From assembly GCA_951406725.2 (NCBI GenBank), contig OX597832.1:68510001-68574000 (forward strand): a stretch of DNA of 64,000 bases, in the 5' to 3' direction. Every line of letters starts with the position of its first letter. Positions within the stretch are counted from its first letter, which is position 1. Source of the DNA: Octopus vulgaris. Taxonomy: Eukaryota. The notes beneath the pieces were generated by a model. It was not told where the DNA came from and did not search any database. It worked only from the letters and a program-made list of their open reading frames with translations. A program made the position numbers and the translations under genes. This document shows, in pieces, positions 3,269 to 54,540 of the stretch.

Positions 3269-3818
3269 GAGTGAGAGAACAATGCATGCTATCAAAGAGA
3301 CACTGGGGTAAAATATACGAAGCCCAGTATACCCATCATGACTAACCGTCATAAGGGTACACCAGGCACATGCATCACAACCATATGTGCACGACATGGT
3401 GATCTCATATCAAGATAAACAGCACATGACCTTGTAGGTGGGGCCAAGTTAGAATTTTCTTCTGGTCAAGTAACACATCCTGCTCAAAAGGTCCCTGAAT
3501 AAGGATTGTTCAAGGATGTTGAATGAAACACCCATGTTTCCAGTGGTGAATTATTTAAACCCCCAAACAATCCCTCTCAACACACGGCTAAGATGCTCCC
3601 CCACTACTTCTGCTTGTGATCAAAGATGCACATATCGTCAGCCACTAAGGGACATGCTCAACTGGTTAAGGTCAAACAACTGACAAGCAAATCTGTGGTA
3701 TTGAGCAGAATATTTGCTGTAGCCCATCTTTTATACTAAGACAAAACAATGTATGTGATAACACTTCCAATCAGTTAAGATCAGGAGCCATGAGAGCCAC
3801 TGCCTGGTATTGCATCAG
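3269..3818 (-). mobile_element. ~550-bp non-autonomous (TAA)n-embedded element, copy 1
   Basis: Reverse complement of 22201-22882 and 34499-35050; (ATT)n on both sides. Confidence 0.9.
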
Positions 3819-4029
3819 TATCATTATTATTATTATTAACATTATTATTATTATTATTATTATTATTATTATTATTATTATTATTATTATAATCATCATC
3901 ATCAACATCATCATCATTATTATTATTATTATTATTCATCTATTATTATTATTAATAATAATAATAATAATAATAATAATAATAATAATAATAATAATAA
4001 TAATAATAATGACAATAAGAAGAAGAACA

Positions 4030-4615
4030 GAAATTATCTGACTGGCAGGAGAAGTGTTGCATGGTGGATTCTTAAAAATAGTTTCAGTAGTAGTAAAACA
4101 TGATTTTGGCTGCCGAAAGGAAAGCTGAAGTGGGAGACAGAAAGTTTGTTAGTAGCTGCATAAGATCAAACATTAAGAACTAATTGTATAAAAGCCAAGA
4201 TAGACAAAAACTAAATAGCTTCCCAATGTAGATTATGGAAATCAAAAGAGAAAAGTGCTACTCATATATTAAGTGAATGTAGCATGCTGACACAGAAAGA
4301 ATACAAGAAAAGACATGACAATCTAGGGAGAGCAATCCATTAGGAGTTATGTAGAAAGCTCGTGAAAAATGTGTGACAAAAGAAAAATTTAAGCAAGAAA
4401 TGAATGAACAAAAAACAGAAAAATTATAAAAGGAAAAGAAAACGTACAGTCAGTTTGCAAAAGATGTGAATACCAAGACAGATACAGAGGACCGGTGGAT
4501 GAGGAGGAGTGATCTGAAGATAGAGGCAGAGGTACTCATATGCGCAGCTCAGGGACAAGCAATGAGGACCAACTATATGAAGTGCAGAATAGATAACACT
4601 ACCGATAGCAACAAA
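4030..4615 (+). pseudogene. Two decayed R4/Dong-type retrotransposon C-terminal fragments
   Basis: WQEK..HG, WLPKGKLKWETESLLVAA*DQTLRTN, CRL...THILSECSMLTQKEYKKRHD; a second fragment reads WMRRSDLKIEAEVLICAAQGQAMRTN. Starts right after (TAA)n. Confidence 0.8.
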
Positions 4616-4624
4616 TATATAATT

Positions 4625-4870
4625 CGTATACATTCACTGCTTTCTTCCAAGGAATCTATTGCTCTTAGCTAAGATCTTCCTTGGGGCTGGCCAGATTGGA
4701 GCATCTCAAGTATAACCAGCCAGAACTGCAATGATAATCTGGAACTCAACTAACGAAAGAAAACTCCGAATGATCAGTCCTTGATTTTTCTTTCCCCTTT
4801 TTGTATCATCTAACTGTCTGGAAGACTTGTCGCATCTTGCATTCTTGTCCCATTTTTTTATTCCTTTATA
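4625..4870 (+). repeat. Interspersed repeat in (TA)n context, unclassified
   Basis: Reverse-complement copy at about 41980-42205 and a partial copy at about 48235-48285 (ctttcttccaaggaatcta...ggctggccagattggagca...ctaactgtctg). Confidence 0.8.
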
Positions 4871-52200: not shown

Positions 52201-53264
52201 GCAAGCTAAAGGACTGCACCAAGCTCTATTCTTTGGCCTGCTTTCTACAGTTTACATTTCCCTACTAAAATACTATTAAACCAAATTTTCTTCCTGTCTC
52301 CATTTACTCATCATGCTTCTTATTTAATAACCACAAACTTGTATTTTCTTTTTCTTTTGTTTTTCTTGTTTTGTTTTGCCATTCCTTTTCTTCTCTTCAT
52401 CTTGACAATGAGCAACTCTCTGAAATGTCAGTAAATCTTCTTACACTTTTCTGCTCAATATCTTGCATTGACTGTCCTGTTCATTGGATTAAAATATTTG
52501 TTTGGTTCACAATACAACCTGAATAAATATATTAACCATGATGATGCCAACGAAACTCAGATTATGCTGATACCAGATTAGTATTAAAAACGATTTTTTA
52601 AAAAATAGCAAACAACAAACAAACAAATCTATTCTGTTGCTTTTTGTTTAGTGAATGGGAGCTAATTGCATTTCAATTAGAAACTAACGAAGAATTACCA
52701 GACATTGGACAGTGCATTCTTGCAGATACACTTCACCCTGTAACACACACAAGGCCTGTCTGCCTACGTTCTGTCTACTATAAAGGCCTCTCTTCATTTG
52801 GAACATTATAGCTGCATTCAGACCTATTCACACAGCTTCTGCTGCCTTCCACCATCCAAACTCTCTCTCTCTCTCACACACACACACATACACACATATA
52901 CACATGGATAATTTTTGATATTTCTTTTGGGTTTTTATCTTCTTTGTTCAAACTCTACCAAGCTCAGTCTCTTGGGTCAATGACATCCACTGGCTTCCAT
53001 TCCAAAACTTTCACTCCTTGTGCCTGCAGCAGTAAAGATGGTAATACTTATTACTAAGACAATGAGCTGGCAGAACTGTTATTGTGCTGGACAAAATATT
53101 CACCAGCACCTTTTTGACTCTATTCTCTGAGTTCAAATGCTACAAAGGTTAACTTTGCCTTACATCAAGTTTGGTAAAATAAACACCAGGAAAGCATCGG
53201 GGTCCACATATTTGACTTCTCCCAAGTGCTGGCCTTGTGCCAAAATTAGAATGTCTTACAATCA

Positions 53265-53490
53265 TTATTACTTCCACATAAGCGAAGGCAGATGTATTGT
53301 TTTCAGTCGTATTTGGTTGTCTGTGGATAAGTTCTTGAATTCATCCATCAAGAACTGTTTGATGGATTTGGATGAAACTTTCACAGATGTTTGGCCTTAT
53401 GACTGGCACAGTATCATTAGATTTTGGGATCGATCCAGTACCAGACATGGACTCTGGATTATTTTTTATATTTTCTTTACTTTACATGTA
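53265..53490 (+). mobile_element. HINE/DINE-1-like (Helentron-associated) element fragment
   Basis: ttattacttccac..ggcagatgtattgttttc subterminal hairpin, gtctgt, and gatggatttggatgaaactttca, typical of these elements. Confidence 0.55.
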
Positions 53491-53997
53491 TATATAAAGT
53501 TTCACATAATTCTCTTGTACATGCACACACACACATAATATCAGTTTTGAATATCACCATCCCATTTCCATTGTGTACACACACACACGCATGAAAACAT
53601 ACCTCTCTTTTACACACAAATATACTCACACTTCAAATACCGTTTATCAGCTTTTTCACTCCTTCCTTCATTATTCATCTACCACCTCATCCTTTCTCAT
53701 TCATATGATACTCTCTTTGCCACTTCATTTCATCTTTCTTATTGTCATTACTTTCTCTTACTCCCTCTCAGTCATGGCTATTACTCTCACCACTTGTCTT
53801 TCTCTGTATTAGTTTTTCATCTCCTCTCCCTTCACCTCTCACTCAATATATATATATATTTGGATTATTTGCCAAGGGTGTAAACCTTTTGTAACAGATT
53901 TACTCAGTACTCTATCATTATTATTATTATTATTATTATTATTATTATTATTGTTATTATTATTATTATTATTATTATTATTATTATTATTATTATT

Positions 53998-54540
53998 AAG
54001 TGAGAGAGCAGTGCATGTCATCAAAGAGACACTGGTGTACAATATACGAAGCCCCAATAACCCATCATGACTACCCGTCTGATAAGGGTACACCAGACAC
54101 ATGCATCACAACCATATGTGTGTGACATGGTAATCTCATATCAAGATAAACAGCACATGACCTTGCAGGTGGGGCCCAGTTAGAATTTTCTTCTGGTCAA
54201 GTACCCATCCTGCTCAAAAGGTCCCTGAGTAAGGGTTGTTCAAGGATGTTGAATGAAACACCCATGTTTCCAAAAGTGAATTATTCAAACCCCTCTCAAC
54301 ACATGGCTATGATGCTCCCTCACTACTTCTGCTCGTAATCAGAGATGCACATATCGTCAGCCACCAAGGGACATGGTCAACTGGTTAAGGTCAAGCAAGT
54401 AACAAGCAAATTTGTGGTATTCAGCAGAATATTTGCTGTAGCCCATCTTTTATTCCAAGACAAAACAATTTACATAATAACACTTCCAATCAGTTAAGAT
54501 CAGAAGCCATGAGAGCCACTGCCTGGTACTGCACCAGGGC
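53998..54540 (-). mobile_element. (TAA)n-embedded element, copy 5
   Basis: Reverse complement of copy 3, including the gccctg 5' end; (ATT)n on both sides. Confidence 0.92.

Follow-up and report, generated by a model that had tools for sequence, protein, structure and literature searches.

A short non-coding repeat in TAA microsatellites of Octopus vulgaris, probably a non-autonomous retroelement copied by Dong/R4 proteins

A 64,000-nt stretch of the Octopus vulgaris genome (assembly GCA_951406725.2, contig OX597832.1, positions 68,510,001 to 68,574,000 of the forward strand; hereafter the window, in which all coordinates are counted) contained five copies of a non-coding element with a consensus of approximately 554 bp, lying at TAA repeats near remnants of R4/Dong-type long interspersed nuclear elements (LINEs). 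What is this element, and which enzyme copies it? An earlier note, made from the letters of the window alone, proposed a sequence-specific, non-autonomous partner mobilised by the R4/Dong enzyme. Our analysis indicated that the element is probably a non-autonomous non-long-terminal-repeat retroelement of octopods, inserted into TAA repeats through Dong/R4 protein acting in trans.

The window is AT-rich animal DNA (34% GC), rich in microsatellites, and the element made up 4% of it, at five copies per 64 kb; an nhmmer scan of the window found no sixth copy. Identity was 83.5–93.6% between copies and 90.6–98.0% between each of the five and their own majority consensus. Copy 1 (3269–3818, minus strand, 95.3% identical to the consensus), copy 4 (34499–35050, plus strand) and copy 5 (53998–54540, minus strand) were full length. 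Copy 3 (22201–22882, plus strand) was also full length and nearest the consensus (98%); a 128-bp tandem duplication close to its 5' end (22216–22343 and 22344–22471) brought it to 682 bp. Copy 2 (19850–20252, plus strand) was 5'-truncated, with its first base near element position 106; it lacked approximately 105 nt at the GCCC end, was preceded by a short AAT-rich run, and had two internal deletions, of 12 nt and 24 nt. All five copies had the 3' terminus CTCTC(ACTC/T) followed by (AAT)n, and in four of them the 5' start was identical within 4 nt and directly followed a TAA-type tract. The five locations, the common 3' end with (AAT)n and the single truncated copy described in the earlier note were thus borne out.

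TAA-type tracts flanked both ends of four copies. They were located at 3819–3954 (5', minus strand) and 3044–3268 (3') for copy 1, at 34412–34496 (5', plus strand) and 35051–35171 (3') for copy 4, and at 54543–54604 (5', minus strand) and 53913–53998 (3') for copy 5; the 5' tract of copy 3 (22122–22198, plus strand) joined it to the 3' end of a LINE. Copy 2 had a long 3' tract leading to the same LINE (20253–20400, plus strand) and the short 5' run. Tracts of at least four TAA-type units occupied 2.0% of the window, and for two other families resembling short interspersed nuclear elements (SINEs), none of the 16 pieces listed had one within 30 nt of its ends, the ends of these pieces being BLAST limits. 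All five copies had the same orientation relative to the TAA strand, as had been noted before, and the same polarity as the local R4 3' ends. The 3' junction had the phase X/AAT (the slash marking the junction) in all five copies and at three of the four local R4 3' ends, and at the fourth too if its last A is assigned to the target. TAA on both sides, with the polarity and phase of R4, corresponds to the shared target of a short internally deleted element (SIDE) or a bipartite non-autonomous LINE. Target-site duplications were not readable, since the element is inserted inside a microsatellite. Published work (PMC3812793, PMC1635306) states that Dong elements target TAA repeats, which upholds the knowledge on which the proposal was built. 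Target, polarity and junction phase together suggest that Dong/R4 mobilises the element.

Other features of these tracts were observed. The tract separating copy 1 from an R4 remnant changed head-to-head from (TTA)n to (TAA)n at 3916–4018. A SINE family that we take to be CORE-like had left decayed copies at 2814–2990, 31284–31424, 36728–36830, 55489–55640 and 38705–38822, whose (ATT)n tails appear to provide TAA tracts on the other strand.

Copies were abundant beyond the window. Of 24 listed runs, 14 contained 94% or more of the words sampled from the element, under five organism labels; after exclusion of five possible source rows from these 14 runs, four studies were left, and four public runs were mapped to the region 22325–22935. 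Each run gave 44,534–73,813 contigs on this region, with a summed depth of 1.1–4.4 million, compared with 5–51 for single listed contigs, and the depth was fairly flat along the element. The summed depth is not a copy number, as the tool itself cautions; in line with the local density, however, it suggests, roughly, on the order of 10^5 copies. The commonest loose end in all four runs was the element 5' end after TAA-type letters (394, 353, 262 and 425 contigs). Variant frequencies in one run, X9, differed strongly from those in the other three, and therefore different subfamilies appear to have spread in different lineages. No match to the element came from any of five exact-pattern scans, which covered metagenome, viral and prokaryote contigs, and word shares of 0.07–0.22 in RNA runs were not counted as evidence of expression.

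Fifteen spurious gene models read the element in antisense, and four of the ten looked up were from Octopus bimaculoides. A TAA-derived homopolymer (poly-Ile, -Leu or -Tyr) stood at an element end in four of the 15: at both ends in P0136, at the 5' end in P0123, at the 3' end in P0127, and, in P0129, where the copy is 5'-truncated close to position 89. One further model (P0124) belonged to a second family described below, and six had no clear element end. Among these models, judged from their sequences, are separate copies in TAA tracts, both full length and 5'-truncated. A constant 3' end with 5' truncation is the pattern of target-primed reverse transcription, although truncation was seen in only two cases, copy 2 and P0129. 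The earlier note named two findings that would overturn its proposal, namely that most genomic copies lie outside (TAA)n or that the sequence is simply the untranslated region (UTR) of a known autonomous element. Neither was found, the TAA flanks being judged from the window, the runs and the gene models and not as a genome-wide fraction. TAA targeting, non-autonomy and retroelement-type behaviour were independently supported by the four runs and the gene models, whereas the link to the enzyme is one that we infer.

The element was non-coding in all six frames, as are SIDEs and bipartite non-autonomous LINEs. A Pfam search over six frames gave no match, and the best score of a hidden Markov model (HMM) of R4 proteins against the element was -2.9 bits, below that of many shuffled sequences. 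A candidate reverse transcriptase remnant, suggested by a tblastn match to one R4 protein (E 0.001, 40% identity over 65 aa, the best of 122 queries), was rejected; it was supported neither by the HMM of 91 R4-like proteins, nor by Pfam, nor by longer other-frame proteins (none of 82 candidates). ARAGORN found no tRNA, and a regular expression found no A/B box on either strand. Rfam gave no match at gathering thresholds, none at E≤10 on copy 3, and four spurious ones on copy 5. The tRNA, 7SL or 5S head with RNA polymerase III boxes that defines a SINE was thus not found in the element. No terminal inverted repeats (TIRs), as expected of a miniature inverted-repeat transposable element (MITE) or another TIR transposon, were found. 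The absence of tRNA boxes and TIRs suspected from reading the letters thus held under search. A hammerhead core, as in a retrozyme or a Penelope-like partner, was absent from all 10 strands of the five copies (regular expression, no positive control) and from the Rfam results, and the copies were single, not tandem. Resemblances to U2, 5S and twister RNAs gained no support from Rfam.

In the predicted RNA structures, a 3' subterminal hairpin (22782–22829, plus strand) had a 13-bp basal stem with three G-U pairs. Its folding energy was -27.1 kcal/mol in the TAA-sense strand compared with -16.9 kcal/mol in the antisense strand, and the z-score of its window was -4.9 compared with -3.5, the sense value lying beyond all 12 null minima (-1.5 to -3.4, from 12 coarser scans). 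Pairing was kept in 58 of 65 cells across the five copies. Of the four frequent variants listed in the hairpin, three preserve the pairing and the fourth (29% in X9) disrupts it; 24 variant rows stand outside that list. A 5' hairpin (22362–22387, plus strand; 10 bp, three G-U pairs) was paired in 38 of 40 cells, with a z-score of -3.3, within the null range. Since the G-U-rich 3' hairpin is predicted to be more stable in the TAA-sense strand, folding favours this strand as the RNA.

The middle of the element, a 168-bp module at 22429–22596 (plus strand; element positions 101–268), was shared with other repeats. The same foreign sequence preceded 22429 in all four runs (76–106 contigs), and another followed 22596 in all four (73–187 contigs). 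The O. bimaculoides gene model P0124 matched element positions 98–265, and its flanking residues, read by eye, fitted both foreign flanks, although a shift of one base was needed at the 3' flank. From these recurrent flanks and P0124, it is most likely that one second multi-copy family carries exactly this module, a sharing that the earlier description of the element had missed. Because the shared middle has sharp ends, the element looks modular, a mosaic of a 100-nt 5' part, the 168-nt module and a 286-nt 3' part. The two foreign flanks were not present in the window. The antisense frame of the module was almost open in the element, and open for 74 codons in P0124. A coding origin of the module was considered and rejected; phmmer against 1.84 billion representatives returned only 14 short models, translations of the element itself, and an Atlas search with P0124 gave nothing above 0.83. 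The sense frames were covered only by the R4 HMM, Pfam and the other-frame protein search, and a distant coding origin is less well excluded there.

The only long protein-like frames in the window were 5'-truncated R4/Dong-type LINEs. One lay between copies 2 and 3 (20397–22121, plus strand) and retained the 3' half of the reverse transcriptase, a zinc knuckle, a restriction-like endonuclease (RLE), one frameshift and a 3' UTR. Another, of a second family (35168–36537, plus strand), lay downstream of copy 4 and encoded a protein 43% identical to that of the first. Decayed R4-like pieces were found near copy 1 on the opposite strand (3963–4612, plus strand), and a decayed R4-like C-terminus with 3' UTR lay upstream of copy 5 (54610–54836, minus strand), detected only by the local HMM (iE 0.001–0.002). 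The claim that the element always sits beside an R4 copy held for all five copies in the window, but one of these remnants lay on the opposite strand, another was a faint C-terminal scrap, and R4 also occurred alone, at 29108–31759 and 36915–37087. Most simply, the adjacency is a by-product of a shared, self-renewing target, with two tenants in one tract. The remnants at 29108–31759 were old fragments on both strands, with neither an adjoining element nor a long TAA tract. The R4 3' UTRs at 22016–22121, 36311–36537, 36915–37087 and 54610–54700 differed in sequence, only the first and third matching each other; by eye, each had a short stem with a GGT-containing loop 40–70 nt from its end. Two open reading frames, 20190–21749 and 34943–36310, began within an element copy and crossed (AAT)n as in-frame poly-Asn into the truncated R4 frame; both are likely artefacts that gene callers would annotate.

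In the mechanism that we propose, the element RNA would be the strand reading (TAA)n, and Dong/R4 protein from an autonomous copy would bind it near its 3' end. The candidate binding signal is probably the G-U-rich hairpin, or else a tail shared with a Dong family outside the window. The endonuclease would nick a (TAA)n tract, and target-primed reverse transcription would copy the RNA there. Most copies would be complete because the element is short, a minority being 5'-truncated or carrying 5' duplications. Insertion would leave TAA on both sides, and therefore element and Dong copies would accumulate in the same tracts. The fixed 5' end may tentatively be ascribed to an internal promoter; unrecognised self-cleavage of a read-through transcript is a possible origin, and some other means is rather doubtful.

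Several observations weigh against this interpretation. The Dong element of Bombyx mori begins with a ribozyme like that of hepatitis delta virus (HDV) (PMC3774820), and none was found in the octopus element. A strict HDV descriptor, used like the hammerhead one with no positive control, matched none of the 10 strands, Rfam gave none, and matches to a loose descriptor were not anchored at the element 5' end, so that the check for such a ribozyme, as carried by R2-type SIDEs, came out negative. The known parasites share a tail with their partner, as in R2 SIDEs (PMC3414825) and, over approximately 70 bp, in EhSINE1 (PMC2996970). The first and last 120 nt of the element had no similarity to the four local R4 3' ends except one low-complexity match (p=0.03). 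The absence of local R4 3' UTR similarity that the earlier note had reported was thus confirmed, and the autonomous element with a common terminus that it sought was not among these ends. They represent three or four families, whereas the O. vulgaris genome holds 51 Dong-R4 families, which span 93 Mb and of which five were recently active (PMC13282606). No partner-like junction near either element end was present among the 24 loose-end rows listed, with 3384 more outside the list. Agreement of the 5' loose-end consensus was only 0.60–0.65, and the 3' flank rows were removed by a repeat filter. The gene models P0126, P0131, P0132 and P0137 (four of 15) exit the element into non-TAA sequence, perhaps by splicing or truncation. 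Finally, the covariation term of RNAalifold was unfavourable (+7.66), which is expected for dead copies, yet lends no support.

A bolder form of the proposal seems unlikely: a headless modular retroelement parasite of approximately 10^5 copies that hijacks a microsatellite-specific RLE protein with no partner homology, by RNA shape alone, with release from read-through transcripts through self-cleavage of a novel class and exchange of the 168-bp module with another family. If it were true, a minimal cargo RNA for TAA-directed insertion would be defined. Mobilisation by a LINE with an apurinic endonuclease (CR1, L2 or RTE), the RNA ending in (AAT)n priming on existing TAA tracts and Dong being a mere co-tenant, is improbable. 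It would suit the missing sequence link to the local R4 ends, the microsatellite 3' tails of other SINE-like families in the window, and the abundance of RTE and CR1, which equals that of Dong-R4 in O. vulgaris (PMC13282606). However, those tailed families had a TAA tract at neither end, while the element has 5' TAA as well, together with R4-like phase and polarity.

Still less probable is a SINE transcribed by polymerase III whose head is decayed or unrecognised; it might be read from the opposite strand and carry an (ATT)n tail, as the local CORE-type SINEs do. Two weak matches connected the middle module with SINE-like repeats of the window, read in antisense: one of 47 nt (equalled in 2 of 1500 shuffles, and the best of 20 whole-element comparisons) and an nhmmer match at 2364–2412 (E 0.018). 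The repeat that gave the 47-nt match (55027–55400, minus strand), with a second piece at 9387–9531, lies just after a TAA tract and has, by eye, a tRNA-like head. Against such an origin, neither strand matched a tRNA, an A/B box or Rfam; both carry runs of T4 (three sense, two antisense); the truncations in copy 2 and P0129 took away the GCCC end, where such a SINE would have its 3' terminus; and long TAA tracts lie on both sides. A CTRR 3' end is a hallmark of Helitrons. A mobile element at the DNA level, whether TIR-less, Helitron-like or a TAA-targeting MITE, would fit the mostly full-length copies implied by the flat depth and the hairpin near the 3' end, but is very improbable, for there is no TIR and no CTRR end, truncation is one-sided, and the G-U hairpin is strand-biased. 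The weakest alternative, truncated copies of a long Dong 3' UTR, shares target, polarity and phase with the R4 ends and is already largely refuted, since a single 5' end directly follows TAA in four of five copies and hundreds of contigs, the depth is flat with no 5'-ward fall as expected of truncated LINE copies, and no coding sequence is joined upstream.

The preferred interpretation, a passenger of Dong/R4, has parallels. Site-specific RLE elements carry short non-coding parasites, the R2 SIDEs (PMC3414825), and the octopus element may work like these or like EhSINE1. The R2 SIDE and R2/R1 hybrid SIDE of Drosophila (Eickbush and Eickbush 2012, PMC3414825) are likewise short non-coding parasites of a site-specific LINE, using its target with no polymerase III head and possibly as mosaics. 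They differ in having a detectable HDV ribozyme of their own and a partner-homologous 3' end, neither found here, and in being few and located in ribosomal DNA, whereas the octopus element has a microsatellite target and, roughly, on the order of 10^5 copies. EhSINE1 of Entamoeba histolytica (PMC2996970, PMC1635306) is also non-coding, 500–600 bp long and devoid of tRNA or 7SL homology, with a partner LINE bearing a restriction-like endonuclease. It differs by the tail common with EhLINE1 and by not being sequence-targeted, while the octopus element shows strict TAA targeting and no tail common with the four local R4 3' ends. Dong itself (R4 clade; Bombyx mori, Anopheles, Biomphalaria; PMC3812793, PMC3774820) inserts into TAA repeats, and its full-length form starts with G straight after the repeat, as here, but it is autonomous with an HDV-like ribozyme, and the octopus element has no coding capacity. 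Exchangeable parts similarly make up the bipartite non-autonomous LINEs and modular SINEs treated by Kojima (2018, PMC5786205), where the sources listed for bipartite elements lacking open reading frames are only RTE, Ingi, Vingi and R2, with R4/Dong absent.

Additional repeats in the window were 115-bp inverted repeats with 96.5% identity flanking a 230-bp (AT)n tract (63446–63905, MITE-like or fold-back), further MITE-like inverted-repeat pairs or palindromes (13723–14097, 42878–43219 and 49020–49253), and a minisatellite with 5.1 copies of a 32-bp unit (32516–32665).

A description of the element was not found in the literature covered, including PMC8967140 and PMC11481361; Repbase, Dfam, Albertin 2015 and the Zenodo library of PMC13282606 lay outside this search and may contain or name it. 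With 1279 SINE families left unclassified and 1102 families unknown in the annotation of O. vulgaris (PMC13282606), automatic repeat libraries probably contain the sequence, unnamed and not interpreted in this way. The kind of parasitism is known, and this passenger is apparently undescribed. Non-autonomous passengers of site-specific retrotransposons have been described as rare and low-copy, as in R2 SIDEs; the octopus element appears to be a major repeat and would extend such passengers to the R4/Dong clade and to a microsatellite target. It would explain spurious octopus gene models and part of what is annotated as 'unclassified SINE' or 'unknown'. If inserted whole by Dong protein, such a 550-nt RNA, with its fixed ends, would be a natural minimal substrate with which to study recognition by RLE proteins, a matter relevant to retrotransposon-based gene insertion.

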